DNA from: an uncultured Planctomycetia bacterium
GTDB taxonomy: Bacteria; Omnitrophota; Gorgyraeia; 2-02-FULL-51-18
Reading direction: 5' to 3'
Assembly (NCBI GenBank): GCA_964606485.1
Contig: CAZSGP010000004.1
Location: 92,365 to 156,364, forward strand
DNA: 64,000 nt
The translations under genes and the position numbers were made by a program. Below, one piece after another: positions 1,417 to 44,202 of the stretch (position 1 is the first letter of the stretch; each line of letters begins with the position of its first letter). The notes beneath the pieces were generated by a model. That model was given only the letters and a program-made list of their open reading frames with translations. It was not told the origin of the DNA and searched no databases.

Positions 1417-1496
1417 CGACGGGTCCTGCCAGCGGTTGTCCGTTCGGACTCGCTTTCAGCTCGCCAAGACGGACGCCTACCGCCGTCACCCGTCGT
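1417..1496. repeat. Family-A long imperfect palindromic element, copy 1 (REP/MITE-like)
   Basis: The arms GGGTCCTGCCAGCGGTTGTCCGTTCGGAC ... AGACGGACGCCTACCGCCGTCACCC can pair as GGGT/ACCC, GGCGG/CCGCC and GTCCGT/ACGGAC. It occupies nearly the whole pyrR-pyrB gap. Related copies lie at 5181-5268 and 32321-32412. Confidence 0.6.
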
Positions 1497-2030
1497 CTAA
1501 TGTTTCTCGCTAACAACGACTTCCTCCGATCGATCTGTTTCACTAAATTTCACGTGAACAATTTCATTTTCACTGGTTGGAATATTTTTTCCGACAAAAT
1601 CGGCGCGGATCGGGAGTTCGCGGTGTCCGCGGTCTATCAAAACGGCAAGCTCAATCCGCTTCGGCCGGCCAAAATCAATCAGCGCGTCGAGAGCCGCGCG
1701 AATCGTGCGCCCCGTGTAAAGCACATCATCCACGAGCACTACAATTCTGTCGTTTAAGTCGAAGCTGATCTCGGTTTTATGAATCACCGGTTGTTCGGCG
1801 ACTAGGGTGAGATCATCGCGGTAGAGATTAATATCTAAGATGCCTAATGGCAATGGGTTACGAGAAATAGATTCAATGGTTTTTTGAAGGCGATTGGCCA
1901 AAATAACGCCGCGGGTGTGAATACCCACCAGACATAGTTTTTCCGTACCTTTATTTTTCTCTAAGATTTCATGCGCCATGCGGACGATGGCGCGGTCGAT
2001 TGAAGGTTGGTCTAAAACAAGCTTTGGCAC
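1497..2030 (-). CDS. pyrR: Bifunctional pyrimidine operon regulator / uracil phosphoribosyltransferase PyrR (GTG start)
   Basis: The 177-aa product has a PRTase motif [12 protein letters not shown] and the C-terminal [20 protein letters not shown] region, and aligns end-to-end with PyrR. Confidence 0.9.
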
Positions 2031-2090
2031 TTTTTTCCTTTTTGGGCCTCTCAGGACCCATTTAAAAGAGACTTTTGGAAGTATACGCTT

Positions 2091-2122
2091 AAAAATTCAG
2101 CCTGTCAAATGAGAGGCTGAGC
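2091..2122 (-). terminator. Putative intrinsic terminator downstream of the large secreted-protein gene
   Basis: On the minus strand the stem CAGCCT..AGGCUG is followed by AAUUUUUA. Confidence 0.3.
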
Positions 2123-2125
2123 CCT

Positions 2126-5100
2126 TTACGCCGCTACACCCACCGCTTCTTGCATGGTTTGAAACGCAGAAAGTCTGCTTCCTACGACTTCGAGCACTGA
2201 TCGAAGCGTATAAGCCGGAGCCACTGAAAAATTTTGTCCGGTCACAAACTCAATCAGGTCTTTCGCGGACCGCGGCGAATTTTTATCCAAAGCGCAAACC
2301 GAAAGGACTTTTAAATACTGACTGTCTTCAACCGCTTTTAAGAGGTCTTCGTAACGATTACCCAGATGAATTTTTCCATCTCTCCGTACGCTTTGGCTAT
2401 TGGCGCGGAAATAATCCGTAAAGTCGTGCGCCAATCCGCCCGCCATCGCAAGGCCCGTTAAAATATTGGGAATGCTGTTTTCGCCCACTTCCACAAAAAC
2501 AGCCAGCTCATTGGGAGCTAATTTCACGTCTTTCTTCAGTTGTTCGACATTGCGAATTTCGGAGGCACTTTTAAAAAGAACTTTGGTAACCACTTCATAC
2601 CGATGACTTTTTCCGATAATTCGATAATTGTCTTGATCTTCTCTCTTGCTCGATTTTTTATTTTTATCAAAATAACTCTCAACTGCGTTGATGCTTTTTT
2701 GACGATTTGGTGGAACCGTTTCGGAAAGAACTCCCGTAAAAACAAATCTTCTGGAGCGATTCGCCTCGATATAAGTTTTAATCACCTTAACAATTTCAAA
2801 AAATTCCTCATCAGAGGCGACGAGACGGCTCAGCACGTCGAATTGGATTTCTGCTCTTCCTTCTTGTTTTCTTTTGCGCGGAGCCACTTGAATCTGTTTG
2901 GCCGTTTCACCCGATTGATCAATAATAAACGCATTCGCCCTCGCTTCCTGCTCAGCCTGAGCAGTGACAGACAAATCTTTTTTAAATAAAGTGAGCGCTG
3001 ATTGCACATCCGGAATTTCCAGCTCTTTTACTTCTTCACCGGAAAACAAAACCGTTAGCTTGTTGTCTTTAAATAGGGGCACAAACACATTTGTGTTTTT
3101 AAATTCATCTTGAATCGCCAAAGCGTATTTTGTAGTTTGGTTCAGACGGCCCGAAAAAATCATTCCTAAAAATAAATCTTTCACCGCTTTTGCATCAACC
3201 GGATCAATGGGCAGGCGTGCCCCGCGTATGTACCGACTAGTTCCATCTTTAATGGAACCTAAAACCTGAATCCAGTCGAACGTCTCGCCTCGCTTTGATT
3301 CTAATGTTTGGTACGTAGCCTTTTCTCTTCTGGGAAAATATACAAGCTTAAGACTTGGCGTAGGCTCTCCATCAAGCTTGCTTGTTTCAAATCCGTAATA
3401 GAGCGCCTTGAAAATTGTGGGTGTCGTTCGACCGCGCTCGCGGCGTGAGATGAGTAGCATCGTATCGAGTGAGATGAGTTGATCTCGAATTTGATACAAC
3501 TGATCAAACGTTAGACTACCCTTAGGCCGAGCCTCCGAAGAAACGGAGGACTCCACTTTAGGATTTTGAGGAACCGGTGTGGCGGCCTGCAAATCAAGCG
3601 GGACTGGAGTTTTTTCGGTCGGTTCGGGAAGCGAAAGACGTGCACCGGTACCAATTTCGGCGTATTCGGGAAATACCGTGAGAACGGTTCCGATGACATC
3701 GGACTTAAAGCTCTGGGGCAAGCGAGGACTTTGCTCATTATCCGCATACTGCCAAACTCTATCAAAAAATTCGTCTATCTGTTTATGGAGATCCTGGTGA
3801 GTGATCATGACATGCTCGTAACTCTTCTCCTTCAATCCGGGTTCTTCGTAAAGAAGCGCGGTCAAGTAATATCCAGACTCATACCGCTTCATGATTTCCT
3901 GGCGAATCGTTTGAAGATCCGCCTCGAGTTTGGCGTACTGCGGCAGATCTCTCCACAATTTTTTGACATATCGGTAAAAATCCCGTGTCACGTGACTCAG
4001 AGTCCAAGCGGATATTCCCAGCGCTGCAGCCATTGTGGATAGGTGTGTCAGTATTTCTGTGGTGCTCGCTAGGCGCGCTCCTAAACTTCCGCCTTTTAAA
4101 CCACCCGCATTCGGGTTTGTTGGGGGATAAATTCTTTCGATCCAGATCACCCGATCACGGCGCTTTGAATAAAGACCCATATCCCCTTCGTCCGGAGTTT
4201 TAGAATAATAGGAAATTTCATCCCTCTTTATCTCAAGGTAAACCACCTTAACGGTTTGCACCTTATTTCGGTTGCCTTGCATAAAGGTAATGTGCACAGG
4301 CTGAGGCCCCTTAAGCTTGAGATTTAAAAATTCATCAAAAGTGTAGTGATTGTCGGAGGGTCTATGAAAAATAGGTGCTGAGTCGGATGCACGAACAGCC
4401 CCTTTTTTAACTTCCGCAAGAGGTGTTTTTTCTGTCCGGTCAAAAGTGTTGCGTGCGGGAGTTTTTTCCGTGTAATCAAAATTAGCTAATCGGGCGCCTT
4501 GAGTGCGAGCGGTTAAAATTTCGGTAATTTCGTCATAAGCCGCGCGATTTTTTCTTCGCGTCACATTAAAAACAATCGGCGTAAAGTCTGCCGCGTAAGA
4601 AGGGTAAAATACGTCTAAAGATTCAAGCCCCACGTCGTGCCGGATCTTGATAAAACGCCCTGAGGCTACTCTAAATGCGTAAAAGAATAAATTCTCTCCG
4701 GACTGCTCTTTTAAAATGGCAGCGTCCGGGTTGTGGCGCAAGTCTTGGGCGAGACGGTTGGGAAAATAAGACTGTCCGGGTTCTTCCGGTTCCCCGATAA
4801 GATCATCAAATGCATAACGCTGAAGAATAAAATCAACAAACTCTTTCCAGCGAAGCCTTATCTGTGAAAGCGTCTCTGACACGTACCCCTTCCCTAAACG
4901 AGCCCCCGCCCCACTACGCTCGACCCCTAGCCGTTTTGTGAGCGGCCCAATCACGTTTGGCTCCATAGCAATGGATACCGTTCGCGACAGATTTTGCATG
5001 GGCGAAAGCACACTGCGCTCCTCAAACTTTTGACCAAGTAAAATTTTCTCGTAACGCGCTTGATTCGTCTCCTGGTAGACCTGCGGACGAATCACAAAAT

Positions 5101-6487
5101 AGGAAATGCCTTTTTGCCGAAGCAAGCTCTTAAGATTGGGTGTGTGATAACCGCCAGCAATCAAAATAGCCGAAAACCCAGAACGGGTCCTGCCGGCGGT
5201 TGTCCGTTCGGACTCGCTCGCGTTTAACCGCGGCTCGCCGAGACGGATGCCTACCGCCGTCACCCGTTTTGGGTTTTCGTAAAGCTTAGACAACATATTT
5301 TCAACAAATGCTTCATCGCGAGCGCACGTTAATTCATAAAATCGCTCCGCTTGCTCCACGCTTTCATCGAACCCTTTTTCCAAAAATAGCGCTCTCTCGT
5401 AAAATGCGTGCTGTTCTGTGATTTTTTTATTTAAGAAAGCCGTGAGTTCCGTAAGTTTCCAATTTTTGGAAAGGGCGCGGTACTCGCTGTACTCTTCGGG
5501 ACTCAGAGTCAATTGAAACAGCTTCTTATAAAGCTTCAGTTGCCGCTCGCAGATTCGCAGATCTTTTTCGTCAGCGGATTGCGCTAAAACCGAGAAAACA
5601 AGCTCCTCGAGTGCTTTTTCTTCCTTGAGAACTTGCTCGGGCCCCAGTCGTTTAGAGGCTTTGAGATAATTAAAATAAGCTTTCTCGTGTTGCGCTTTTT
5701 TTACATCAATTTTGGATTCTAATTGCCCAAGCGCCCGTAGCCGTTTTAAGTGCGTGAATTTTTCGGTAGGAATTTCTAAAAATTCAGCCTGGACGAGCAA
5801 TAATTTTACAAAATCGGTGAATGCCAGTAACCCGCTATGGTAGGCATCCGCCTTTGCCTGAAACGCCAAAAGGCGCGGACGGTAAAGACGCGGTTTTAAA
5901 ACGTCAATTGCGGTTTGAATTTGAGAAAGATAGGCCCCGAACTTTTCGCGCTCGGCGGCCACGGCGCGGTAAGATTCGATCGCTTCCTTATATAAGGCGA
6001 AGTTTTCCACGCCCCAGATTGTGAAATCGAGATTTGAGGTGAGGTCCAGATATTCTTCGCCGTGGAGCAAGCCTTGCTTCAAATACGATTGGGCAACTTG
6101 TTGTCTCAGTGCAGTACTTCCGTGCGTACGAAGCGTGGAAAGCGAAACGTTTCCGGATCCGGCTTCGACGAAAATATTCGCGGCGTTTCCATTCCCACGT
6201 ATGCGCGAATCGTTCTTGAGAATAATTTCCAAGGTCTTCGCTAGATTCATCTGTCCGGAAGTGTTGGTGTGCGCGTCTTCGAGTAAATACACTGTCATTC
6301 CCGCGGAAGCGGGAATCCAAGCATCCTCAACACTGGCTACACTCTCCGGAATTTTAAATGAAAGTTTCGCCTTCTGTTCTAAACCAAGGTCAGATGGCCG
6401 CAGCTCTCCGGCCGCAAAAGCAACTGGCTCCGCTAAAAGAGCCAAGATAAGCGCCAGTGAAATGGTTCTTAAAAAACGAAAATTCAT
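2126..6487 (-). CDS. Large secreted hypothetical protein (1453 aa) with N-terminal signal peptide
   Basis: The long ORF begins MNFRFLRTISLALILALLAEPVAFAAGE, a cleavable signal peptide. I recognised no catalytic motifs. TEKTP tripeptide-containing repeats occur. A family-A repeat is embedded in-frame at aa ~408-434. Confidence 0.6.
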   Translation of the reverse strand: MNFRFLRTISLALILALLAEPVAFAAGELRPSDLGLEQKAKLSFKIPESVASVEDAWIPASAGMTVYLLEDAHTNTSGQMNLAKTLEIILKNDSRIRGNGNAANIFVEAGSGNVSLSTLRTHGSTALRQQVAQSYLKQGLLHGEEYLDLTSNLDFTIWGVENFALYKEAIESYRAVAAEREKFGAYLSQIQTAIDVLKPRLYRPRLLAFQAKADAYHSGLLAFTDFVKLLLVQAEFLEIPTEKFTHLKRLRALGQLESKIDVKKAQHEKAYFNYLKASKRLGPEQVLKEEKALEELVFSVLAQSADEKDLRICERQLKLYKKLFQLTLSPEEYSEYRALSKNWKLTELTAFLNKKITEQHAFYERALFLEKGFDESVEQAERFYELTCARDEAFVENMLSKLYENPKRVTAVGIRLGEPRLNASESERTTAGRTRSGFSAILIAGGYHTPNLKSLLRQKGISYFVIRPQVYQETNQARYEKILLGQKFEERSVLSPMQNLSRTVSIAMEPNVIGPLTKRLGVERSGAGARLGKGYVSETLSQIRLRWKEFVDFILQRYAFDDLIGEPEEPGQSYFPNRLAQDLRHNPDAAILKEQSGENLFFYAFRVASGRFIKIRHDVGLESLDVFYPSYAADFTPIVFNVTRRKNRAAYDEITEILTARTQGARLANFDYTEKTPARNTFDRTEKTPLAEVKKGAVRASDSAPIFHRPSDNHYTFDEFLNLKLKGPQPVHITFMQGNRNKVQTVKVVYLEIKRDEISYYSKTPDEGDMGLYSKRRDRVIWIERIYPPTNPNAGGLKGGSLGARLASTTEILTHLSTMAAALGISAWTLSHVTRDFYRYVKKLWRDLPQYAKLEADLQTIRQEIMKRYESGYYLTALLYEEPGLKEKSYEHVMITHQDLHKQIDEFFDRVWQYADNEQSPRLPQSFKSDVIGTVLTVFPEYAEIGTGARLSLPEPTEKTPVPLDLQAATPVPQNPKVESSVSSEARPKGSLTFDQLYQIRDQLISLDTMLLISRRERGRTTPTIFKALYYGFETSKLDGEPTPSLKLVYFPRREKATYQTLESKRGETFDWIQVLGSIKDGTSRYIRGARLPIDPVDAKAVKDLFLGMIFSGRLNQTTKYALAIQDEFKNTNVFVPLFKDNKLTVLFSGEEVKELEIPDVQSALTLFKKDLSVTAQAEQEARANAFIIDQSGETAKQIQVAPRKRKQEGRAEIQFDVLSRLVASDEEFFEIVKVIKTYIEANRSRRFVFTGVLSETVPPNRQKSINAVESYFDKNKKSSKREDQDNYRIIGKSHRYEVVTKVLFKSASEIRNVEQLKKDVKLAPNELAVFVEVGENSIPNILTGLAMAGGLAHDFTDYFRANSQSVRRDGKIHLGNRYEDLLKAVEDSQYLKVLSVCALDKNSPRSAKDLIEFVTGQNFSVAPAYTLRSVLEVVGSRLSAFQTMQEAVGVAA
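5181..5268. repeat. Family-A palindromic element, copy 2, inserted in-frame inside the 1453-aa CDS
   Basis: GGGTCCTGCCGGCGGTTGTCCGTTCGGACTCGC...GAGACGGATGCCTACCGCCGTCACCC is translated on the minus strand as ...[24 protein letters not shown]... without a stop codon. Confidence 0.6.
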
Positions 6488-6621
6488 TCAATATCCTTTA
6501 GAGTAAGTGGGCACAAATTTCCCACGAAAAAACGATGTCAGAAGTGTACCTGAGGGGTTTGCCAAATACAAGGCGATGCAACGAATTTTATTTAATCAGA
6601 TTTAAATCTTTTTAAGCGAAA

Positions 6622-7455
6622 TTACTTCTGCGCCACGGCGTACGCCATGAACTTGGCTTCAAAGGACTTTTGGTCTACCCCATACACGCTTTGAAGTGCT
6701 TTGGAAAAAGCTGTCCCCTTGGCCGTGAGCTTCAAAAATTCAAACATTTTGGCGTTGCCGTGTTCCATAACCAGATACCGCACGAGAAGTTCGCTCTGCC
6801 GGTAAAATTCATCCACGTTAGCCGTCGGATAAGCGGTGATTTGTGTAAATTGGTTGAGCGGCACGTATTTGTCTTTGGGCAACAACTTGACCGTGTGAAT
6901 CAAATACTCATCTCCCCCAAACTGCGTGGAAATGGTGCGTAGACTCACGTACTCGGCAAAACCTTCGTTTAAATAAAGCGGCGGCACCGCGTCTAAAAAG
7001 CGAAATAAAATCAAGTGGCTCATTTCATGGGCCAAAACCTGCTGAGGAGACAACCAATACGACGGCCGGTACATAAAAAGCTCCTGGCCGTTGGTAAAGC
7101 CGCCCGCTTCAAATGAAAATTGTCTCGTTTTTGCGAGAAACTGTTTCCACAAGGCTTCATCGCTAAATACAAAAATGTGGCTTTTTTCTTTCGTTTGGTC
7201 GTTCTTAATTCCAAAGAAATTTTTGATCCATTCGTAATCATGCTCCGAATAAATCACGACGGTCTCCGCGTCTTTCGCGTTGAGGAAGTGGACAATAAAA
7301 TGCTCTGTTTCGGTTTGCTTCCAGGATTCCTTTTGAATTGAAGTTGCGTCTTGTGCGGTTTGGCTTAGCTTTGCGGCTAAAGCATTTACTGTAGAAAAAA
7401 TACTTAGAATTAAAAATAAAAATGCCGGACTAAATAATTTTTTTAACCGCATCAA
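6622..7455 (-). CDS. Secreted putative zinc metallopeptidase (HExxH...E gluzincin-like)
   Basis: Signal peptide MMRLKKLFSPAFLFLILSIFSTVNALA; the HEMSH motif is followed by NEGFAEY. Confidence 0.5.
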   Translation of the reverse strand: MMRLKKLFSPAFLFLILSIFSTVNALAAKLSQTAQDATSIQKESWKQTETEHFIVHFLNAKDAETVVIYSEHDYEWIKNFFGIKNDQTKEKSHIFVFSDEALWKQFLAKTRQFSFEAGGFTNGQELFMYRPSYWLSPQQVLAHEMSHLILFRFLDAVPPLYLNEGFAEYVSLRTISTQFGGDEYLIHTVKLLPKDKYVPLNQFTQITAYPTANVDEFYRQSELLVRYLVMEHGNAKMFEFLKLTAKGTAFSKALQSVYGVDQKSFEAKFMAYAVAQK

Positions 7456-8023
7456 TAAGCTCTTTCATTTTGTCTGAGTCATTCGCATCGTAATACCCGC
7501 GCACATTTCCCTCGCCGTCAACCAGCACAAAGCTTGCGCTATGAAACATGGGTTCGTCAACAGTGTTCATGTGAAAGGAAGTGGTGATGTGATTCAACAC
7601 GTCTCTGTCACCCGTTAAAAAAATCCATTTTGGATTTCCGGCGGAGTAAGTTTTGGAATATTCCTCGAGCACCGCAGGCTTATCAAAATCGGGGTCCACC
7701 GAAAACGAAACAAGCGTTACGCCTGGCAGCGCTTTTGCAAGTTGCGCCATTTGCTGACTCATAATCGGGCACTGGCCCTGGCAGCGCGTAAAAATAAAAT
7801 CGCCAATCCAGATTTTTCCATTGAGTTGGGACTTATTAAAAGCCTGGCCGCTTTTTTCAACGAGCGTAAACTCCGGCGCTTTTCCAAGATACGGCAAACT
7901 TTTGGCGGCCAAAAGAGGCACACCGGTTCCCGCGCGATTTGAGATTAAAAAAATATAAAACCCGATCACACCAACCGTTAGGACAGCAAAAAATAAAAGG
8001 ATATGTTTTTTAAGATTTTTCAT
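7430..8023 (-). CDS. SCO1/SenC family copper chaperone / thiol-disulfide oxidoreductase
   Basis: A TM anchor precedes a thioredoxin-like domain with a CxxxC motif (CQGQC). The ATG at 8023 (MKNLKK) is preferred over the TTG at 8035. Confidence 0.8.
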   Translation of the reverse strand: MKNLKKHILLFFAVLTVGVIGFYIFLISNRAGTGVPLLAAKSLPYLGKAPEFTLVEKSGQAFNKSQLNGKIWIGDFIFTRCQGQCPIMSQQMAQLAKALPGVTLVSFSVDPDFDKPAVLEEYSKTYSAGNPKWIFLTGDRDVLNHITTSFHMNTVDEPMFHSASFVLVDGEGNVRGYYDANDSDKMKELIDAVKKII

Positions 8024-8402
8024 AAATATTCCCAATAATTTCTATCTCTAAGTTTTGTGGGACTACTTTTAATCCATTCGCCTTAAAAACACTCTCCAAG
8101 GGATGTGCATTTTTATTTCCAAACGAGTCAGGGATGTACTCTACAGGTCCTTCGATGGTCTTTCCCTGAAATTTTATTTTTAAAATGTCCCCTTCGAAAA
8201 TTTCGGTCTGATTTTTATCGTACATGCCGGTGCTTTCTAAAAAAACGCAGTCGGCGTACTGACCTTTATTGACGGGCAAGCCCTTTCCCTCATTTTCACC
8301 CTTGTCATCGTCGCACAAGAGAACATTGAGGAATTTTTGGTACCCTCGGTAGTACATTTTCTTTTCTTTCACATGCCACACGCGGAATTTAATGTCTTTC
8401 AC
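8010..8402 (-). CDS. YopX-like phage-derived protein
   Basis: The N-terminus MKDIKFRVWHVKEKKMYY matches the hallmark M-x-IKFRAW start of YopX-family phage proteins. It is a 130-aa single gene overlapping both of its neighbours. Confidence 0.55.
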   Translation of the reverse strand: MKDIKFRVWHVKEKKMYYRGYQKFLNVLLCDDDKGENEGKGLPVNKGQYADCVFLESTGMYDKNQTEIFEGDILKIKFQGKTIEGPVEYIPDSFGNKNAHPLESVFKANGLKVVPQNLEIEIIGNIYEKS

Positions 8403-9502
8403 AAAAACGCTCCCGAAGAACCCGCAGATTTAAAGTGAGCATCTCTCCACCGGAGCAGAGGCTGCTCAATAAGCCACGCCGAGCATTTTCCCATGCCTAA
8501 GCTTCCGAGCATATACAAAATAAATTCCGCTCCCGGTGAGAGGGTTTCAAAACCCGGAATTTTTTGAATCATTAATATTCCGAACAATTTAAAAAATAGA
8601 TGCCAAATATAGATGGAGTATGAGTCCTCGCCGATTCTTGCTATCATTTGAGCGGCTTTCCCTTCCGGGCTTTTGCCGTGTACGAAAATCATTAGCAGTA
8701 TCCCAAAACCCAGATACAGCAGCGTAAGTCCAATGGTGAGCATCCAGCGGTTTTCCACCGGGAAAATGAGCGCCGGCGCAATAAGGCCGCAAGCCGCGAG
8801 GAGCCAACCCAAACGAAATGCTCTCATCCATCTTTCGAGTGTAGCGCCGTGATAATGGTAAAGGTAGGACAGAAATACTCCGAAAAAAAGCCCATCCAGG
8901 CGCATATGCGTCTGGAGCAGCGCCGGTGATGGGAGCCAGTTTTGCACGGGTGGCGGTGAAAAAAATCTAAAAATGAAGCAGGCGATGGCCAAGAACCCAA
9001 ACACAAATGGAATGCGGTTCATCTTTCCTCGGCTTCCAAACCACAAAATTAAAAGCCCAAGTCCCAGATAAAAATGTTCCTCTACCGCAAGTGACCAGGT
9101 GTGATCCCACAGACAAAACGTTGTGTAATTTTGAATAAAAAGTGCGTCCGATAAAATGTGTTTGAGCGACACTTCAAATCCAAATACCCAATAAAAAAAC
9201 GTTGAAACTCCGATCAGCGCGTAATAAGACGGGTATATCTTAAGACCTCGGCGAATAAAAAAACGAGTGAGGTTGATTTTCCCGTAGCGGATGGATTCTT
9301 TAAAAAGGAGCCCTGAGACCAAAAATCCGCTGAGAACAAAAAATAGATCAACCCCGATCCAGCCGGATTTCTGCCAGAGCGCTAAACACGAGCCTGCCCA
9401 TCCGGATGTTTTAAGAATCGCTTCGGGTAAATGACGCCCCAGCACTAAAAAAATTGCGGCGGCCCTTAAGAGATCAAGCTGCCGAACCCGCGTGTTAGGC
9501 AT
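8399..9502 (-). CDS. Acyltransferase family 3 (OafA-like) integral membrane O-acyltransferase
   Basis: MPNTRVRQLDLLRAAAIFLVLGRHL is the canonical AT3 N-terminus and the protein has multiple TM helices. The start is placed at the ATG at 9502, because the longer ORF overlaps rsmI. Confidence 0.8.
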   Translation of the reverse strand: MPNTRVRQLDLLRAAAIFLVLGRHLPEAILKTSGWAGSCLALWQKSGWIGVDLFFVLSGFLVSGLLFKESIRYGKINLTRFFIRRGLKIYPSYYALIGVSTFFYWVFGFEVSLKHILSDALFIQNYTTFCLWDHTWSLAVEEHFYLGLGLLILWFGSRGKMNRIPFVFGFLAIACFIFRFFSPPPVQNWLPSPALLQTHMRLDGLFFGVFLSYLYHYHGATLERWMRAFRLGWLLAACGLIAPALIFPVENRWMLTIGLTLLYLGFGILLMIFVHGKSPEGKAAQMIARIGEDSYSIYIWHLFFKLFGILMIQKIPGFETLSPGAEFILYMLGSLGMGKCSAWLIEQPLLRWRDAHFKSAGSSGAFL

Positions 9503-10178
9503 GAGATAGGTGGAATAAAACGACGAATTCGCCGCGTACTTTTTGCTCGGAGAAGCGCTTGAGCGCAGCACTGACTTTGCAGCGCACGACTTCTTCAAAT
9601 TTTTTGGTGAGCTCTCGCGCAACCACAATATCGATATCTCCGAGTACGGTCTGAATGTCCGCCAGTGTTTTTAAAATGCGGTGGGGAGATTCATAAAAAA
9701 CAATGGTGCGCTCTTCGTTTGCAATGGATTTTAATTTATTTTGCCGCTGGCCCGACTTGACCGGAAAGAATCCCTCAAAACAAAACCGGTCGGTCGGAAG
9801 CCCAGACAACACGAGCGCCGTGATAATAGCCGACGGCCCCGGCATGGCTTCGATGGGAATGCCTTCATTTAAAGCGCCTTGAATGAGTTTAAACCCTGGG
9901 TCGGCGATTCCAGGCGTGCCGGCGTCGGAGATGAGTGCAATATTTTGCCCATTCATGAGCTTTTGAATCATTTCCGGCACACGGCGCTTTTCATTGAAAT
10001 TAAAAAAACTCACCAAGGGTTTTTGAATGCCGTAATGATCGAGTAGAATTTTAGAGTGGCGCGTGTCTTCGCAGGCTATCAAGTCTACTTTCTTAAGCGT
10101 CTCGACCGCACGAACCGTCATGTCGCCCAGATTCCCAATGGGGGTCGCAACAATAAAAAGCTTTCCCTGATTATTCAA
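9495..10178 (-). CDS. rsmI: 16S rRNA (cytidine1402-2'-O)-methyltransferase
   Basis: Tetrapyrrole-methylase fold with LFIVATPIGNLGDMTVRAVETLKKVDLIACEDTRHS. Confidence 0.9.
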   Translation of the reverse strand: MNNQGKLFIVATPIGNLGDMTVRAVETLKKVDLIACEDTRHSKILLDHYGIQKPLVSFFNFNEKRRVPEMIQKLMNGQNIALISDAGTPGIADPGFKLIQGALNEGIPIEAMPGPSAIITALVLSGLPTDRFCFEGFFPVKSGQRQNKLKSIANEERTIVFYESPHRILKTLADIQTVLGDIDIVVARELTKKFEEVVRCKVSAALKRFSEQKVRGEFVVLFHLSHA

Positions 10179-12075
10179 CGGTGACGGACTTGGCTAAGTT
10201 GCGCGGCTGGTCAATGTCTTCGCCAAACTCCCGCGCGATACAGTAAGCGATGAGCTGAAGCGGCACGACAGTAAGAAAGGGAGAAAAAAGTTCTTCGACT
10301 TTCGGAATTTCAATCACGTAAGAGGGGCTGATCTTTTGAATTTCGGTATCCCCTTCGGTCACAATGGGGACGATAATTCCATTACGCGCCTTGATTTCTT
10401 GAATATTCGAAATCATTTTGTCGTAGGTCTTGGATTCCGGGCAAATACAGATCACCCACGGGTTTTCGTCGATGAGCGCAATCGGCCCGTGTTTCATTTC
10501 ACCCGCCGGATAACCTTCGGCTGGAATGTAGGACAATTCTTTTAATTTAAGCGCTCCTTCGAGCGCATTGGGCGTATTGATGTTGCGGCCCAAGTATAAA
10601 AAGAAACTATTCGGCGCGCGTTTTCGTTTTTCCGGTGCCAGAGAAAAATATTTCTCAAGACTCTGATGATAACGCTCGTTGAACTCCCGCGCGTTTTTAG
10701 CCCATTCGGCTTCACCGGCTTTGTAGTTGTTTAAAAATTTTTGCACAAGGCGCGGAACCCTTAAAAATTCTTTGAGCATTTTTTGAATTTCTTTGGGTGT
10801 CTGCGATTTTAAAATTCCGGCGAGATACAGTGAAAAAAGATACAAAATGGCAAGTTGCGCGGTGTAGGCTTTGGTTGAGGCAACAGCAATTTCAGGACCC
10901 GCGTGTGTGTAAATCACGCCTTGCGCTTCGCGGGCAAGCGAACTGCCGAGCACATTGCAAATCGTCATCGTGAGAGCGCCCTTGGACTTCGCTTCACGAA
11001 TACCAGCGAGCGTGTCAGCCGTCTCCCCACTCTGAGAAATGGAAATCACAAGCGTATCTTTAGAAATATTGGGACTGCGGTAGCGAAACTCGCTAGACGT
11101 ATCGACCCACACTGGAAGTGGCGTGAGTTTTTCGAGAACGTACTTGGCGGTCAACCCCGCATGAAACGACGTGCCGCAGGCAATAATGACAATTCGTTTA
11201 ATTTTTTTAAACGCCGCGTCTTTAATTTTTAATTCTTCGAACGAAACTTTCGAGCCCTTCACGCGCTCCTGGAGAATTGCGCTCAAAATATCGGGCTGCT
11301 CGAAAATTTCTTTGAGCATGAAATGCGGAAAGCCGCCCTTTTTGGCGAGTGCCGCGTCCCAATTAATTTTTGTCGTCACACAGGGAACACTTTTTCCAGC
11401 TAAGTCCGTAAGGCGCACCTCGTTTTCGGTGAGCGTAATCACCTGGGCATTTTCAATAAACACCGCATTCTTCGTGTGTTCTAAAAAAGCGGAAACGTCG
11501 CTCGCTAGAAAATTTTCATTCTTACCAAGCCCTATGACAAGCGGGCTGTCCATCTTGGCGGCCACAATTTTTCCCGGTTCCTGCGAGCAGATCACCGCAA
11601 TCGCGTAGCTTCCTTTTAAATCCTTCAGCGCGCGGCGAACGGCATTTTCGAGATTTCCTTTATAGTATTTTGAAATGAGGTGAACAATGACTTCGGTATC
11701 GGTTTGCGAACGAAACCGGATCCCTTCCTCTTCAAGCGTTTTCTTTAAATCAAAAAAGTTTTCAATGATTCCATTATGCACCACCGCAATTTGATCTTGT
11801 TTGTCCAGGTGCGGGTGCGCATTTTCAGGGGTGGGCGCGCCGTGAGTCGCCCAGCGCGTGTGACCAATAGCCACGTGGCCGGACAGCGGCCGCTTCTTTA
11901 GAAGCTCTTCAAGATTTTTAATTTTGCCATGCGTTTTTTCGATGGCAATGGCGTGATGGCCGTTCTGCACCGCGACGCCCGAGGAATCATACCCCCGATA
12001 CTCGAGTTGCTTAAGGCCTTGAATGACCAGATCCGGCGCTTTTTTAGGGCCGGTATAACCAAAAATGCCGCACAT
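10171..12075 (-). CDS. glmS: Glutamine--fructose-6-phosphate aminotransferase
   Basis: The MCGIFGY N-terminal nucleophile is followed by two SIS domains; 634 aa. Confidence 0.95.
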   Translation of the reverse strand: MCGIFGYTGPKKAPDLVIQGLKQLEYRGYDSSGVAVQNGHHAIAIEKTHGKIKNLEELLKKRPLSGHVAIGHTRWATHGAPTPENAHPHLDKQDQIAVVHNGIIENFFDLKKTLEEEGIRFRSQTDTEVIVHLISKYYKGNLENAVRRALKDLKGSYAIAVICSQEPGKIVAAKMDSPLVIGLGKNENFLASDVSAFLEHTKNAVFIENAQVITLTENEVRLTDLAGKSVPCVTTKINWDAALAKKGGFPHFMLKEIFEQPDILSAILQERVKGSKVSFEELKIKDAAFKKIKRIVIIACGTSFHAGLTAKYVLEKLTPLPVWVDTSSEFRYRSPNISKDTLVISISQSGETADTLAGIREAKSKGALTMTICNVLGSSLAREAQGVIYTHAGPEIAVASTKAYTAQLAILYLFSLYLAGILKSQTPKEIQKMLKEFLRVPRLVQKFLNNYKAGEAEWAKNAREFNERYHQSLEKYFSLAPEKRKRAPNSFFLYLGRNINTPNALEGALKLKELSYIPAEGYPAGEMKHGPIALIDENPWVICICPESKTYDKMISNIQEIKARNGIIVPIVTEGDTEIQKISPSYVIEIPKVEELFSPFLTVVPLQLIAYCIAREFGEDIDQPRNLAKSVTVE

Positions 12076-12139
12076 AGACTGGGTATTTTACCTCAAAACA
12101 AACACCGGCATCCATGGTAAACTATGCCCCAAAACTTCT

Positions 12140-13210
12140 ATGAAAAAGACGATTCTCTTAAATCCAGGCCCCGTCAATGTCACCCCCAGTGTGCGCCGCG
12201 CCCTTCTCAAGCCCGATATTTGCCACCGGGAACATGAGTTTTCCACACTTTTACAGTCTATCCGGACGCGGCTTCTCAAAATTTTCTCAGTGGAGCGCTC
12301 GCATACGGTTGCTTTTTTTTCGGGGTCCGGCACCACAGCGCTCGAAGCGATGCTCTGCGCCTCTGCCGCTGAAGGTAAAAAAGTACTGGTTCTCTCCAAT
12401 GGAGTTTATGGGGAACGCATCCAAAAAACGCTTCAAATTCACGAAATCTCGTCGATTGTACTAGATTCACCCATCGGGGAATTTCCAAATCTTCATTTGA
12501 TTGAAGAAACGCTTAAAAAAAATCCTGCCATTGAGTCGGTAGCGCTCGTGCATCACGAAACATCAAGCGGCATGCTCAACCCTCTAAAAGAAGTTTCGGC
12601 TCTTGCTAAAAAATACGGCAAGCTCGTTTTTGTAGACGCCATTAGCTCACTTGGCGCAGAAACCATCCATTTTAAAAATATCGATTACTTGGCGGGAACC
12701 TCGGGAAAATGCCTGCACGGCTTTCCAGGCGTTTCATTCGTCTTTATCGAAAAAAAGGCGCTCCCGAGACTGAAGAGCCTAAAAGTTCGCTCGCTGTCCT
12801 TCGATCTCTGGAATGCGTTAGAGCATCAATTGCAAAATGACACGCCGTTTACGCCGGTCGTTCAAATTTTTTACGCGTTCGATCAAGCACTCAAAGAACT
12901 CGAAAAGGAAACGTTGAGCCGGCGCATCCGCCGCTACGAAGAAAAAGCGACGCTTCTCGAAAAAGGTTTTGAAGAAATGGGGATTCAATTTTTAATTTCC
13001 AAAAAAAATCGCTCCCACGTGCTCACTGCTCTTTGGACACCGGCGTCCGTGTCCTACGCCACCCTGCACGATACGCTCAAGAAAAAAGGGTTTGTGATTT
13101 ACGCTGGCCAATCCTCGCTCAAAGGTAAAATTTTCCGTGTCGCGAATCTCGGTGATGTTTCTATCCAGGACTTAAGACGCTTTCTTGCTGCCTTCAAAAA
13201 AAGTTTATGA
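12140..13210 (+). CDS. Class V aminotransferase, 2-aminoethylphosphonate:pyruvate transaminase (PhnW)-like
   Basis: The ATG at 12140 gives MKKTILLNPGPVNV. The segments SNGVYGER, HHETSSGMLNP, VDAISSLGA, GKCLHGFPGVSFV and FRVANLGDV track the PhnW/AGXT-family conserved blocks. Confidence 0.65.
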   Translation: MKKTILLNPGPVNVTPSVRRALLKPDICHREHEFSTLLQSIRTRLLKIFSVERSHTVAFFSGSGTTALEAMLCASAAEGKKVLVLSNGVYGERIQKTLQIHEISSIVLDSPIGEFPNLHLIEETLKKNPAIESVALVHHETSSGMLNPLKEVSALAKKYGKLVFVDAISSLGAETIHFKNIDYLAGTSGKCLHGFPGVSFVFIEKKALPRLKSLKVRSLSFDLWNALEHQLQNDTPFTPVVQIFYAFDQALKELEKETLSRRIRRYEEKATLLEKGFEEMGIQFLISKKNRSHVLTALWTPASVSYATLHDTLKKKGFVIYAGQSSLKGKIFRVANLGDVSIQDLRRFLAAFKKSL

Positions 13211-13890
13211 GCGCACCGTCCGTCATTCCGCCGAGTGAGAGTTTTAAATTAAACCGTTTTTTGGCTGAGCCTTTTACGCGGCTTCTTCTAAAAACACCAC
13301 TAACGCCCAATCAAGTCACAATCCTGAGTCTAGCGTTTGGCGTCCTAAGCGGCTGGTTCATTTCATTTGGTAGCTTCATTGGTTTTGTCAGCGGAGCACT
13401 TGCATTTCAAATGGCAGCGGTGCTCGACAATTGCGACGGCAATATCGCCCGCGCAAAGAATATGCGGAGTGAGTTTGGCGGCTGGCTTGACGTGTTTTGT
13501 GACGTGCTCGTCGACATCGCCTTCTTTGTGGGTTTAACAGCCGGCGTCAAAGCGGCCGGGTTTCACGGTCCCATTTGGATAGCGGGATCGCTCTGCGTGG
13601 CCGGAAGTCTGATGAATTTTTGGGTGGTCGTCACCGAAAAATTAAAAGGGTTTGGTCCGGCCGTGTTCAATCAGTCTAACCCCAAGGAAGCTAAGCGCAG
13701 AAACTGGCTCTACAAAACTGCTGATGCCCTCCGCGAAGGCGATTCCTCCTGGTTTATCCTACTCTTTGCTCTTTTTTCAAAAATGGACTGGTTGTTGTGG
13801 AGCTCAGCGGTGTACATGCAGATTATTTGGCTGAGTTCTCTCATCATGAATTTCAAATACATTTTTCTTTCACCCAATGAAAATCGTTAA
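13207..13890 (+). CDS. CDP-alcohol phosphatidyltransferase family membrane protein
   Basis: The signature D-G-x2-A-R-x8-G-x3-D-x3-D is present as DNCDGNIARAKNMRSEFGGWLDVFCDVLVD. Confidence 0.75.
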   Translation: MSAPSVIPPSESFKLNRFLAEPFTRLLLKTPLTPNQVTILSLAFGVLSGWFISFGSFIGFVSGALAFQMAAVLDNCDGNIARAKNMRSEFGGWLDVFCDVLVDIAFFVGLTAGVKAAGFHGPIWIAGSLCVAGSLMNFWVVVTEKLKGFGPAVFNQSNPKEAKRRNWLYKTADALREGDSSWFILLFALFSKMDWLLWSSAVYMQIIWLSSLIMNFKYIFLSPNENR

Positions 13891-14866
13891 ATTTCTTCTC
13901 CTCGGACTCGGATTTTGGCTTCTTTATTTTACGATTCAAAAGGTCGGCTTTGGAAATATTGAAGGCTATCTGCGCCAAATGGGCTGGAGCGCACTCCCCA
14001 TTCTCATTATTTATCCGCTGATATTCTTTTTCGACACACTCGGCTGGCTTTACGCATTTCCCAAAAGCCTCCCCAAACACATTCCGTTTCTGGATCTTTA
14101 TTTTATTCGCATCATCGGTGAGACGATGAACTGCATCATCCCCTGGGCCGCGTCACTGGGAGGCGAGCCACTCAAAGTTCAGCTTTTAAAATCGCGTCAC
14201 GGCATATCCCTCGCCGAAGGCTACGCCTCGATTCTGATTGTTCACACCACGTTTTGGATTTCACTCAACTGTTTTGTGATTGGCGCCATCGTCTTTACGC
14301 TCAAATCGCTTCCGCTCACTCCCATTCTGTGGCACAGCGTCCTCATTTTTCTAGTGGTGCTGGGCGTAGTCGCAGCCCTACTCGTCGCGGGCCTTCACTG
14401 GGGAATTTTTGAAAGATTTCATTCGATCGGTGAAGCGTTTAAGTGGTGGGGGGAACATTCACACGAGAAAAAACAAAAATTTATCTCTCTCGATCGTGAC
14501 ATTAAAACATTTTACACCGAAAATAAATCGCGTTTTTTTCTTTCCAGTTTCTTTAACCTGCTGGGCTGGCTCATGGGAATGTTTGAAGTGTATTTTATTG
14601 GCCGCGCCCTCGGCCTGCCGATCGGAATTACCGAAGCGTGGCTTTTAGAAGCGCTGATTCAGGTTTTGCGCATCGTGACTTTTTTTATCCCCTCTTCGAT
14701 TGGAACCCAAGAAGGCGGAATCGTTCTTATCTTTTCTCAATTTGGATTCGCCGGGCCTGCGAGCCTTGCGTTTGCAATTGTGCGGAGAATCCGCGAAATG
14801 ATTTGGATTGGGTTTGGGCTCGTACTCTGGTCGCTTTTAAGCGATCGCTCAAAAACTACTTCGTAA
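13877..14866 (+). CDS. Flippase-like / lysylphosphatidylglycerol-synthase transmembrane-region family protein
   Basis: An ~8-TM protein of 329 aa, translationally coupled to the CDP-alcohol transferase; architecture typical of the UPF0104/TIGR00374 family. Confidence 0.55.
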   Translation: MKIVKFLLLGLGFWLLYFTIQKVGFGNIEGYLRQMGWSALPILIIYPLIFFFDTLGWLYAFPKSLPKHIPFLDLYFIRIIGETMNCIIPWAASLGGEPLKVQLLKSRHGISLAEGYASILIVHTTFWISLNCFVIGAIVFTLKSLPLTPILWHSVLIFLVVLGVVAALLVAGLHWGIFERFHSIGEAFKWWGEHSHEKKQKFISLDRDIKTFYTENKSRFFLSSFFNLLGWLMGMFEVYFIGRALGLPIGITEAWLLEALIQVLRIVTFFIPSSIGTQEGGIVLIFSQFGFAGPASLAFAIVRRIREMIWIGFGLVLWSLLSDRSKTTS

Positions 14867-16175
14867 AATCCCGCTCGTCGACTAAACGCGCGAGTTTCCG
14901 CTGGGTTCGAAGCGCGCCTCGTGCATGCGGAATAAAATCAATTTTACAAAATTTCATTTGATAAATATTCCACGCATCCGGCAATTCCTTTTTAAGACTC
15001 TTGAAAAAGGCTTCCGAAATTTGTCCGGGATCCCCCACAGCATCCGAGTGCTCCGCGTGGAATTCGATTAAATCCTTCCGGTCTTGTTGCTTGAGCACAA
15101 TTTGCCAGTCCGGTCCAAGCCCTGCGACACCGGAAAACACGGGTTCAAACATCCACGGCGCGATATTCCCAATCGCCGTCGGCACCCATTCATTCATTCG
15201 ACCCTTTAATTTTTCGATGCGGCGACCCGGAAGCCCACTCTTAGAAGGCGTATTGAGAAAGCGTGTCACGTCTCCTGAGCGGTAGCGCACAAGCGGCATC
15301 ACGCGGCGGTTTAAATTCGTGTACACAAGTTCGCCGTAACCTTGCGGATCGGGATTTAAAATTTCAAAAAAATTATGAAATTGATTGAGTTGGTAGCCAT
15401 CCTGCGCCAAATTTTCCATGCCGAGCGCGCCAAAGCCTTCGGTTTGCCCGTAACTTAAAAGAAACTGCGCTTTCCAAATTTTTTCGATGTATCGGCGCGT
15501 GGACTCTGCCATATTTTCGCCGCCGCCAATTAAAAGTTTTACCGGCCAAGCTCCATGCTTTTCGGCCACTTCGCTTAAACCTAGAATCCAGGAAGGGTCG
15601 CCAACAATCACCGTAATTTTATAATCTTTTAAGCGCTCATAAAAATCAGCCGGCGGAATACGCCCGGCTTCGACGTGAAAACAGCCCATCACTTTGCAAC
15701 TTGCTGAAAGCACGGGCCCTGAAACCCAAAACGAATAATCAAACGCACTGGCCACCCGGTCAGTGGGACGAACACCCACTCCCCAGAGACCCACCGCACC
15801 CGCCCAACCCGCCTCCTCAACTTCGTTTCGTGAAAAATAAACGCGCTTGGGCCGCTTGGACGTGGTCCCCGTCGTTTCGTAAGCAGTGTCCGCTTTGAGA
15901 CAAATAAATTCTTCCGGATTTTGACGAAGATCTTCAGCGGTCGTAAAAAAATCTTTTAGATCCTGCGGTGCTTTAACGGTAGAAGCGTCGATATTCAACT
16001 CTTTGAACCGCCTCTTATAAAACGGGGAGTGCTCCGCTACAAATTGAACCGTCTTTCTAAAATTATCTTCTTCGAGACGATGAAGTATTCCGTGGGGAAC
16101 ATTTTTATAAAGCCAAAATCCCCGCTCGGCAGGATTGCCGGCAGGGATTTTGTTAATAAGAGAAACGAGTGACAC
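14856..16175 (-). CDS. Adenylate-forming enzyme, phenylacetate-CoA ligase / coenzyme F390 synthetase-like (acyl-CoA or acyl-ACP ligase)
   Basis: An ANL P-loop variant TTGTTSKRPKRVYFS and a YGQTEGFG motif are present. It is the last gene of the FAS/PKS-like operon. Confidence 0.7.
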   Translation of the reverse strand: MSLVSLINKIPAGNPAERGFWLYKNVPHGILHRLEEDNFRKTVQFVAEHSPFYKRRFKELNIDASTVKAPQDLKDFFTTAEDLRQNPEEFICLKADTAYETTGTTSKRPKRVYFSRNEVEEAGWAGAVGLWGVGVRPTDRVASAFDYSFWVSGPVLSASCKVMGCFHVEAGRIPPADFYERLKDYKITVIVGDPSWILGLSEVAEKHGAWPVKLLIGGGENMAESTRRYIEKIWKAQFLLSYGQTEGFGALGMENLAQDGYQLNQFHNFFEILNPDPQGYGELVYTNLNRRVMPLVRYRSGDVTRFLNTPSKSGLPGRRIEKLKGRMNEWVPTAIGNIAPWMFEPVFSGVAGLGPDWQIVLKQQDRKDLIEFHAEHSDAVGDPGQISEAFFKSLKKELPDAWNIYQMKFCKIDFIPHARGALRTQRKLARLVDERDFTK

Positions 16176-17549
16176 TTATTTGGCGCACTTTTTAATCAAG
16201 AGATCAAACATCTCGCAAGCCAAATCCATCTCGGCTTCGGAGATATCAAACGCCGGCGCGATGGTGAACACGTTTTTGTAATAACCACCCACGTCGAGCA
16301 CCAAACCCATCTTGCCCTTGGAGGTTTGAATGCCTTGCATGCCCGCATGGAAAATGCGGTCTGTCATCTCGCGGTCCGGCGTGTAACCGTCCACCGGCGA
16401 GACAATTTCCATGCGAAGGGCCATGCCCATGCCATCGACATCGCCGATAATTTTCGGATGCTTCTTCTGCAAGTCTTTCAACTTACCTAAGAATATTTTC
16501 CCTTTTTTCTCAATGCCGCCTTGGAAATCGGTTTCCTCGGTCATTTTCATGAGCTCCAAACCCACGGCCGTGCCGAGTGTGTTGGACGAAAATGTCGAAT
16601 GCGTCGAACCCGCACCCCAAACTTTCGGGTTGATTAGCTCTTCCTTGGCCCAAATACCCGAAAGCGGGTTCAAACCATTGGTCAGCGCTTTGCCGAACAC
16701 GATGATGTCGGGCTTCACACCGAAATTGGCCATTGACCAAAGAGGCCCTGCGCGATGAAAGCCCATTTGGATTTCGTCATCCACCAAAAGCACTTTGTGT
16801 TTTTCGAGGATTTTCTTGATCGCTGGAAAATAATTTTTCGGCGGAATCACATACCCGCCGGTGCCTTGAATCGATTCGGCATAAAATGCGCCAAATTCCG
16901 ACTCACCCGCTTTAAAATCCCAGACACCGTTGTATTCGGTTTCAAATAATTTTTCAAACTGGTCCACGCAGTACATGCCACAATCCTCCGGCTTTTTGCC
17001 GTAGGGGCAGCGGTAGCAGTAAGGATACGGCACAAAATGCGCACGGTCCGAAAAGTGCCCAAAGCGCCTGCGGTACCGGTAGCTCGACGTAATCGCCGAA
17101 GCGCCCAGCGTTCTGCCGTGATAGCCGCCCATGAACGCGAACACTAAATTTTTCTTGGTGTGTTGGCGCACGATCTTCAGTGAGTCTTCCACTGCCTGCG
17201 CACCACCCACGTTAAAATGCACGCGGCCTTTTTCACCGAATAGTTTTTCTACCGAAAGCGCGATTTTTTCCGATAGTAGCACTTTTTCTTCGTGCAAATA
17301 CTGGCAAGCCAGCTGTGGCAATTTATCGATTTGCTTTTTTAGCGCCTCGCCTAAGCGTTTGTTGTTGTAGCCGAAGCTTGCGGCCGAATACCACATCTGA
17401 AGGTCGAGAAATTTATTGCCCTCACGATCGTAAAGATAGCTACCTTCACAGCGGTCAAAAAATTTCGGAGGTTCGAGGTAGTGCACGGTATCGCCGTACG
17501 AACAATATTTGGCTTCTTTCTCAAGAAGTTCTTTTTCAGAAAAGCTCAT
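16176..17549 (-). CDS. Class III (PLP fold type I) aminotransferase
   Basis: 457 aa, with the PLP-lysine context IVFGKALTNG and the conserved DDEIQMGF block. Confidence 0.75.
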   Translation of the reverse strand: MSFSEKELLEKEAKYCSYGDTVHYLEPPKFFDRCEGSYLYDREGNKFLDLQMWYSAASFGYNNKRLGEALKKQIDKLPQLACQYLHEEKVLLSEKIALSVEKLFGEKGRVHFNVGGAQAVEDSLKIVRQHTKKNLVFAFMGGYHGRTLGASAITSSYRYRRRFGHFSDRAHFVPYPYCYRCPYGKKPEDCGMYCVDQFEKLFETEYNGVWDFKAGESEFGAFYAESIQGTGGYVIPPKNYFPAIKKILEKHKVLLVDDEIQMGFHRAGPLWSMANFGVKPDIIVFGKALTNGLNPLSGIWAKEELINPKVWGAGSTHSTFSSNTLGTAVGLELMKMTEETDFQGGIEKKGKIFLGKLKDLQKKHPKIIGDVDGMGMALRMEIVSPVDGYTPDREMTDRIFHAGMQGIQTSKGKMGLVLDVGGYYKNVFTIAPAFDISEAEMDLACEMFDLLIKKCAK

Positions 17550-25818: not shown

Positions 25819-25821
25819 CTT

Positions 25822-25868
25822 TCCTCCCTTTACCAAGGGGCGGTGTCCGCCTCAGCGGACGGAGGGGT
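25822..25868. repeat. Family-B structured palindromic element, copy 2
   Basis: CCTCCCTTTACCAAGGGGCGGTGTCCGCCTCAGCGGACGGAGGGG. Hairpin 2 carries compensatory changes relative to copy 1 (GTCCAC/GTGGAC becomes GTCCGC/GCGGAC). It sits between convergent stop codons. Confidence 0.5.
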
Positions 25869-32310: not shown

Positions 32311-32320
32311 ATTATCCTCC

Positions 32321-32412
32321 GGACCAAAGTGGGTCCTGTCGGCGGTTGTCCGTTCGAAAGCCACCTTCGGTGTTTTCGAGACGGACGCCTACCGCCGCCA
32401 CCCACTTTGTTA
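32321..32412. repeat. Family-A palindromic element, copy 3
   Basis: CAAAGTGGGTCCTGTCGGCGGTTGTCCGTTCG...GAGACGGACGCCTACCGCCGCCACCCACTTTG, with outer arms extended by AAAGTGGGT/ACCCACTTT. It fills the xseA-xseB gap. Confidence 0.6.
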
Positions 32413-33632: not shown

Positions 33633-33642
33633 ATTGTCGCTT

Positions 33643-33723
33643 TGCCAGCGGGTCCTGGCCTTCGGCGGGCGATTTCGCGTGCAGTTGCGCGCGAAATCAT
33701 CCCGCGCTCGGCCACCCACTGGC
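33643..33723. repeat. Variant palindromic element sharing family-A termini (GGGTCCTG...CACCCACTGG)
   Basis: CCAGCGGGTCCTGGCC ... GGCCACCCACTGG flank an internal palindrome CGATTTCGCG..CGCGAAATC, upstream of xseA. Confidence 0.4.
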
Positions 33724-44198: not shown

Positions 44199-44202
44199 CG
44201 TG

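Follow-up and report, generated by a model that had tools for sequence, protein, structure and literature searches.

A palindromic repeat inside an Omnitrophota coding sequence

The sequence analysed here, hereafter the window, is a stretch of 64,000 nucleotides (nt) from an uncultured Omnitrophota bacterium (GCA_964606485.1, contig CAZSGP010000004.1, positions 92,365-156,364 of the forward strand). Within an open reading frame (ORF) of its reverse strand, coding for a protein of 1453 amino acids (aa), lies an imperfect palindrome, c2, which belongs to a repeat family that we call family A. Two further copies of the family, c1 and c3, and one member of a sister hairpin family, A2, occupy intergenic spacers of the same window (Table 1). 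A preliminary description of this DNA had located a palindromic repeat at 5181-5268, read in frame and free of stops within the ORF at 2126-6487; the sequence is as described, except that the palindrome is larger, at 109 nt. Either strand of c2 folds as a long imperfect hairpin (-57.6 and -57.2 kcal/mol, z-scores -5.6 and -5.2), a stability matched by none of 200 shuffled sequences. Because five of the six reading frames of the c2 core are open, the openness of the frame does little on its own to show that the segment was inserted; what is informative for a putative insertion is a length divisible by three, together with the lack of the segment in homologues.

Residues ~1-520 of the host protein make up a domain conserved in Omnitrophota, of EreA/ChaN/TraB-like fold, which is shared with 34 relatives (P0002-P0035), the closest of them ~40% identical, which carry the names Omnitrophica or Omnitrophota wherever they are named. 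In an alignment of 30 of these homologues, the loop that separates the conserved motif K-[LM] from A-[IV]-L-I-x-G-G-[YF]-H numbers exactly 7 residues in 25 and 37 in the host protein, which implies that 30 aa (90 nt) were added in the latter, and not the ~27 residues previously estimated. The extra residues coincide with c2 and appear as 30-residue gaps in BLASTP alignments; by the symmetry of the palindrome, positions 5184-5273 are as good a placement of the 90 nt as the one given in Table 1. Relative to the homologues, the c2 segment is confirmed as a palindromic repeat that was inserted in a coding sequence, and the in-frame insertion reminiscent of Rickettsia palindromic elements (RPEs) that had been proposed for it is borne out by the absence of the segment from 25 of the 30 homologues, by the intergenic copies and by the in-frame copies in PrmC, PyrK and agmatine deiminase described below.

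That the segment might instead be a native lineage-specific loop, palindromic by coincidence and holding no inserted repeat, draws some support from the variability of the loop, since four of the 30 homologues (P0005, P0011, P0016 and P0020) hold long inserts of their own there, unrelated to c2, which brings the independent inserts at this loop to five among 31 family members. Such a reading nevertheless has a negligible probability, given that the loop has 7 aa in 25 of the 30, that the peptide has no relatives elsewhere and that the same 70-80-nt core recurs in two intergenic spacers and three unrelated enzymes. When the 34-aa stretch of the ORF that spans the insert was compared with 1.84 billion representative proteins, the matches were itself and, by chance, a repeat protein (P0160), with no genuine relative among them. 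In P0011, from another Omnitrophota metagenome-assembled genome (GCA_016206805.1), the same loop holds an unrelated 74-nt hairpin composed of GTCGTGA heptamers (contig L001, 11372-11445, -62 kcal/mol); its gene also contains one of the arms a second time, as well as a 21-nt repeat in three tandem units (L001, 10245-10274 and 10414-10476).

The homologues align collinearly from residue ~5 to ~520 across the c2 junction. Since both flanks of the insert are thereby collinear with the same proteins, a fusion of two ancestral genes, offered earlier as an alternative explanation, is excluded; about 30 homologues cross the site within one N-terminal domain. An AlphaFold model of residues 1-530, built with 30 homologues (mean predicted local distance difference test score, pLDDT, 84), likewise assigns the residues before and after the insert to one domain. 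Its pLDDT values of 72, 51, 55 and 66 over residues 401-440, against ~95 on either side, mark a low-confidence segment between a helix (373-403) and a strand (438-445), both of which score ~95, and such a segment fits, in the model, a tolerated loop.

As to a chimeric join produced by the assembler at the repeat, these repeats do interrupt short-read assemblies. In an independent Logan assembly (SRR12487046), two contigs, both 100% identical to the window (17452..5189 and 5211..1436) and overlapping by 23 nt, read from the upstream coding sequence through c2 into the downstream coding sequence and reproduce both junctions, which are therefore not a mis-assembly. Together with the collinear homologues and the single modelled domain, this leaves fusion or chimera with next to no credibility. 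Logan contigs (L003, L091 and L096) span c3 to c2 and c2 to c1, and all the contig ends that map in the window fall in copies of the element, as expected of a multi-copy repeat. Copy c1 is present, identical, in ENA contig L092.

Within the host family, residues D71, H73, N75, E108, E145, G445-G446 and H448 of the conserved domain are invariant. The C-terminal parts diverge strongly among family members, and domains of the kinase, DnaJ, WD40 and peptidase M23 types are among their precomputed Pfam hits.

Anatomy of the repeat family

Five copies were examined as DNA, namely c1, c2, c3, A2 and a copy in prmC, the gene of a further in-frame insertion in the same genome. The three family A copies of the window have in common the near-invariant arms GGGTCCTGYCRGCGGTTGTCCGTTCG and RAGACGGAYGCCTACCGCCGYCACCC (1421-1491, 5185-5265 and 32331-32403), with zero arm-pair matches expected by chance according to dinucleotide-preserving shuffles of the window. 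All three fold on both strands as long imperfect hairpins (-37 to -58 kcal/mol, z-scores -4 to -7.5), and in a sliding-window folding analysis the five most stable 100-nt windows corresponded to c2, c3, A2 and two other repeat families. Against a genomic G+C content of 48%, family A is G+C-rich.

Over the four DNA copies of family A the core is near-invariant, asymmetric features included: a 7-base-pair (bp) helix (CGGCGGU/ACCGCCG), two 3-nt bulges on opposite strands, one mismatch and one single-base bulge. The apical segment exists in two unrelated versions, each of them self-pairing. The c2 core corresponds to a core of the c1 type with 10 additional apical nt (TCGCGTTTAACCGCG replacing TTTCA), and c3 has an apical segment unlike those of c1 and c2. 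The pair that closes the core varies by copy (C-G, T-A or G-C), and nine of the 31 pairs show changes on both sides. The hairpin structure thus appears to be the conserved feature of family A. A2 has the termini of family A (GGGTCCTG...CACCC) and, at its base, the same GGGU/ACCC helix interrupted by a 3-nt bulge, but an unrelated interior (-58.6 kcal/mol).

Outside the core, c1, c2, c3 and A2 each possess a complementary outer stem of 5-14 bp that is specific to the copy, and the prmC copy has essentially none. At least five adjacent Watson-Crick pairs between flanks are expected in about one case per 1000 by chance, yet four of the five copies have them. No direct target-site duplication flanks c1, c2, c3 or A2, whose flanks are inverted copies of each other instead; the prmC copy alone has the same 4 nt, CGAG, on both sides. 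In c2, the 90 extra nt may be parsed as an 83-nt closed core plus 7 nt that are the reverse complement of the neighbouring CCCAAAA, and the native loop would then have read YENPKFS or YENSGFS, the usual 7 residues of the family.

The absence of direct duplications bears on whether family A could be a classical MITE (a miniature inverted-repeat transposable element), that is, a deleted insertion sequence (IS) with terminal inverted repeats, mobilised by a DDE transposase. Its size (75-110 nt) and inverted termini are compatible with that origin, and A and A2 have common termini and different interiors, like MITE families of one transposase. With flanks that are mutually inverted in c1, c2, c3 and A2, and no parent IS seen in the window, we consider this origin distinctly unlikely.

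Two stray GGGTCCTG octamers were discarded as elements, one within the glmS coding sequence (10893-10900) and another (2052-2059) within a candidate PyrR-binding site in the pyrR leader (2016-2073, reverse strand; RF00515, 34.8 bits for a gathering score of 54, E-value 0.006), whose GGGUCCUGAGAGG loop accounts for the octamer. A third repeat family of short G+C-rich hairpins (CCTCCCCTTACTAAGGGGAGG and GTCCACCTCAGTGGAC) is found at 381-480 and 25819-25868, in terminator-like positions, closely following pyrB in one case and separating a convergent gene pair in the other. The gene of a YopX-family protein (8010-8402, reverse strand) is located in housekeeping surroundings, between acyltransferase and SCO1/SenC genes; the YopX family is of phage origin.

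Intergenic copies and their syntenic relatives

Each intergenic copy lies close behind a stop codon: c1 immediately after pyrR, c3 8 nt after xseA and A2 7 nt after ymdB. In the first case the element fills the gap from the pyrR stop codon (1497-1499) to the ribosome-binding site and ATG (1400) of pyrB. Syntenic relatives, with an XseA 66% identical, retain the gene order rny-ymdB-xseA-xseB-ispA-dxs. In them, the xseA-xseB spacer measures 9-10 nt, compared with 107 nt in this genome, and ymdB and xseA, which are separated here by 98 nt, abut or share a 4-nt overlap; ~58 kb of the relatives' sequence contains none of these hairpins. On this comparison the intergenic copies are insertions as well.

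It could be argued that the hairpins are chiefly functional RNA, either intercistronic stabilisers of mRNA or sites of processing by RNase III or RNase Y, roles that have been proposed for repetitive extragenic palindromic (REP) sequences, and that the coding copies are by-products of their spread. All four window copies are indeed in transcription units, three of them fitting precisely into the gap from a stop codon to the following ribosome-binding site or start codon; seven of eight copies are in the mRNA sense, and pairing is kept through two-sided changes. Moreover, most REPs are argued to be transcribed (Di Nocera et al. 2013, PMC3733652). Nonetheless, the element has no Rfam match, its two strands fold equally well and its orientation is confounded with the replication strand. 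The same operon is present in the syntenic relatives with hairpin-free spacers of 0-10 nt, which means that the structure is not required there. A primarily functional RNA is consequently, in our judgement, improbable, if less so than a MITE.

The longest ORFs of xseB (32056-32364, 102 aa) and xseA (32418-33719, 433 aa) start within hairpins, extensions that arise because the elements have open frames. Relatives and ribosome-binding sites place the true starts at 32310 (xseB) and 33632 (xseA), and the database protein P0040 (433 aa) carries the false N-terminal extension of xseA.

In-frame copies in housekeeping enzymes

When the six-frame translations of the element were used as queries, three further proteins of the same genome, encoded on contigs of 366,040 and 401,265 nt, were matched (Table 1). 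In PrmC, PyrK and agmatine deiminase alike, the element peptide falls in an alignment gap relative to homologues of solved structure (PDB), as an insertion does. The PrmC insert directly precedes the ILDLGTGSG strand. An ENA contig (L004) that encodes a PrmC with one residue of difference supplies the DNA of this copy, which comprises the 73-nt core plus one closing base pair, 75 nt or 25 codons; the copies in agmatine deiminase and PyrK are known as peptides. Look-ups of the exact proteins P0001, P0036, P0037 and P0038, made to obtain their DNA, matched no record. Family A amounts to six copies, four in frame within coding sequences and two intergenic, and A2 to one copy of each kind. The coding A2-type peptide, RRVLSFGERARVQLRTSSSHLGHPS, is inserted in agmatine deiminase in the opposite orientation. 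All six coding copies hold an open frame and preserve the frame downstream, and those whose DNA is known (c2 and prmC) add multiples of three bases.

This regularity also speaks to the idea that the element is excised from the mRNA, in the manner of an intron or a bulge-helix-bulge motif, leaving a mature protein devoid of the 30 residues. A long helix with a 3-nt bulge in each of its strands does recall such a motif; however, its bulges are ~9 bp apart, and the bulges of the archaeal bulge-helix-bulge motif are 4 bp apart. Furthermore, the coding copies preserve the frame, and those known as DNA add multiples of three bases, a constraint that excision would not impose; the intergenic copies measure 80, 84 and 85 nt. 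An archaeal-type intron was rejected, and excision in general is very improbable.

A REP doublet headed by GTAG (GTAGGGGCGCGATTCATCGCGCCC and an inverted partner; -44.7 kcal/mol, z-score -8.1) separates a PAPS-reductase-like gene from a cysN-like gene at 44202-44259, and the same doublet appears, as an in-frame translation, within PyrK (VGAQLIAPKKGRDESRPY).

Table 1. Positions in the window, or protein identifiers, of the elements and of the genes that hold them
Feature	Position or protein	Strand	Remarks
Host gene, 1453-aa protein, signal-peptide-like N-terminus	2126..6487	-	no Pfam hit for shared part
Copy c2, full imperfect palindrome, 109 nt	5171..5279	- (mRNA-sense)	inverted-repeat arms 5171-5207 / 5243-5279; fold -57 kcal/mol, z-score about -5.4
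Conserved c2 core, 81 nt, GGGTCCTG...CACCC on + strand	5185..5265	-	
c2 outer stem, left arm CGAAAACCCAGAAC	5171..5184	.	pairs with 5266-5279; not common to other copies
c2 outer stem, right arm GTTTTGGGTTTTCG	5266..5279	.	pairs with 5171-5184
90 extra nt, one possible placement (residues R408-G437)	5177..5266	-	homologue comparison; boundaries inferred
Copy c1, pyrR-pyrB spacer	1417..1496 (core 1421-1491)	-	outer stem ACGAC/GTCGT
Copy c3, xseA-xseB spacer	32325..32409 (core 32331-32403)	-	outer stem CAAAGT/ACTTTG
Family A2 hairpin, ymdB-xseA spacer	33640..33723	-	outer stem GCCAG/CTGGC
Agmatine deiminase	P0036		element-encoded peptide, identical to P0037 peptide
PyrK	P0037		element-encoded peptide, identical to P0036 peptide
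PrmC/HemK	P0038		element-encoded peptide

Database and literature searches

An exact scan with the two-arm core pattern had no match in GTDB representative genomes or JGI metagenomes, and none in the viral contigs of IMG/VR. Relaxing the pattern to a one-arm 19-mer returned 86 loci, all of them single chance matches in coding sequences of unrelated taxa (peptide ETDAYRR), and the second arm was absent at every one. In Rfam, nothing reached the gathering score within the element, and a relaxed E-value gave microRNA-precursor noise (16-20 bits for cut-offs of 79-95). A literature search retrieved no report of such elements in Omnitrophota. Judged by sequence alone, family A is a new sequence family.

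Three known kinds of structure were considered and rejected. One was an integron attC site: attC sites consist of R''/R' core sites (RYYYAAC ... GTTRRRY) in a gene-cassette context, and family A ends in GGGTCCTG / CACCC with variable flanks and has copies in housekeeping operons and genes. The others were a PyrR attenuator, in the case of c1, and a CRISPR repeat.

Origin and spread of the element

Taken together, the sequence data make it highly probable that c2 is a copy of a lineage-specific non-coding hairpin repeat of ~75-110 nt, of the REP, REPIN or RPE kind, inserted into the coding sequence of its host. The 90 nt were added with an open frame in a loop that is permissive in this protein family, and they leave the host gene intact; translation of the element would yield a 30-residue excursion, bounded by helix 373-403 and strand 438-445. 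As a selfish, non-autonomous repeat, it would land widely and those insertions that destroy genes would be lost; the survivors would be found in operon spacers, or in permissive loops when their length is a multiple of three with an open frame. Repeated in-frame and intercistronic copies are what is expected if only harmless insertions survive.

More tentatively, and with rather less than even confidence, we suggest that the element may move, or may once have moved, as a single strand folded on itself, served in trans by an enzyme that recognises hairpins. The most plausible candidate is a Y1/HUH tyrosine transposase of the RAYT or TIRYT type, acting on single-stranded DNA in the way proposed for REPs. 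Several leads point weakly to such a transposase: no direct target duplication is seen, the asymmetric bulges are preserved in every copy, seven of the eight copies have the same orientation, with the G-rich strand as the common one, and the mRNA-sense strand of family A has GTAG 5' of its inner stem. In addition, the mRNA-sense terminus, (G/C/T)GGGTG(A/G)C, resembles the GGGGWSAS of inverted repeats located beside TIRYT genes (PMC3733652).

A number of observations weigh against this account of an inserted mobile hairpin and its transposase. A Pfam scan of 34 ORFs of the 64-kb window detected no transposase of any kind. The 7:1 bias in orientation is weak and inseparable from the orientation of genes or replication, and the A2-type copy in P0036 has the opposite sense. 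The likeness to GGGGWSAS is a match to an 8-nt motif that could be due to chance, and the copies examined as DNA number only five. An empty site for the coding copy c2 was not found at the nucleotide level; as the closest homologue of the host protein is ~40% identical, the exact boundaries of c2 and the origin of its outer stem can only be inferred. Translation of the insert is predicted from the intact frame.

The outer stems might derive from insertion into small pre-existing hairpins, or from later extension of the palindrome into its flank by template switching. Since the corresponding spacers of relatives have 0-10 nt, at least part of the outer stems would not be ancestral. A bolder proposal, and to our mind an unlikely one, is that the element spreads in a way that leaves an inverted copy of the target, or is extended by intrastrand template switching, so that each copy gains its own outer stem of 5-14 bp; the families would have in common only the small bulged basal helix (GGGU / AGG-ACCC), which an enzyme would recognise as a module. 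To our knowledge, neither such a footprint nor such a recognition module has been described for REPs, REPINs, RPEs or MITEs.

Significance for genome evolution and annotation

Omnitrophota are known almost only from metagenomes, and we know of no mobile hairpins in this phylum. The occurrence of selfish palindromes in coding genes, a phenomenon documented best in Rickettsia and a handful of REP-rich bacteria, is now extended to Omnitrophota, with one genome in which at least three families of palindromic repeats are tolerated in frame in essential enzymes (PrmC and PyrK). From an evolutionary point of view, the elements mark permissive loops and supply new peptide segments. In annotation, they produce false N-terminal extensions (xseA and xseB), they break short-read assemblies, and the protein segments that they add are open to misreading by structure or homology pipelines. 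The ends of Logan contigs could be used for counting copies across the rest of the genome. If confirmed genome-wide, locus-specific inverted flanks would provide new information on how hairpins insert or grow.

Comparison with known palindromic elements

Family A resembles the RPEs (RPE-1 to RPE-8; Ogata et al. 2000, 2002; Claverie & Ogata 2003, all cited in PMC3733652) in being a palindromic repeat of ~100 nt that occupies intergenic sites as well as in-frame positions in the genes of conserved proteins, where some tens of residues are added, probably with the fold undisrupted, and different genes are struck at different places. In contrast to the alphaproteobacterial hosts of RPEs, the host of family A is a member of the Omnitrophota, free-living or an episymbiont and known only from metagenomes, and the element combines a high G+C content, in a genome of 48% G+C, with complementary outer stems specific to each locus. 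Family A lies outside the RPE families of Rickettsia, being hosted by Omnitrophota and having a core pattern with no true match in GTDB representative genomes, JGI metagenomes or IMG/VR; a sequence relationship to RPEs was neither found nor is to be expected, and only its behaviour is common to both.

The view that in-frame insertions of this kind are rare outside Rickettsia, expressed in the preliminary description, was overstated, since Di Nocera et al. (2013, PMC3733652) catalogue intragenic GTAG/CGTC REPs from several species, with Opitutus terrae and Rickettsia conorii holding the most. These REPs are located mainly between co-directional genes near the upstream stop codon, with a minority in ORFs, where dimers encode 20-30 aa (PMC3733652). 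The intergenic copies in the window fit that location, between co-directional genes and close to the upstream stop codon, and an unpaired GTAG precedes the inner stem of family A. However, family A is a single bulged hairpin of 71-81 nt rather than a 20-40-nt unit or a self-palindromic pair, and what A and A2 have in common is the basal GGGU/ACCC helix and its bulge, not GTAG, which A2 lacks.

With REPINs, which Bertels and Rainey are said to have described in 2011 as REP doublets forming hairpins, and with the inverted repeats next to TIRYT genes, family A has in common its overall size, the shape of a long hairpin, the lack of target duplication and the presumed single-strand hairpin substrate, although its arms, unlike those of REPINs, are not themselves REP hairpins. 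MITEs such as Correia/NEMIS, ERIC, RUP and Nezha are likewise small non-autonomous repeats in transcription units, sometimes in frame in genes, and terminal inverted repeats are present in family A insofar as the whole element is an inverted repeat; yet MITEs have direct target-site duplications and a parent IS, and neither was found for family A in the 64-kb window. In all these comparisons, a single feature could go beyond known elements, namely the inverted flanks that are specific to each locus.

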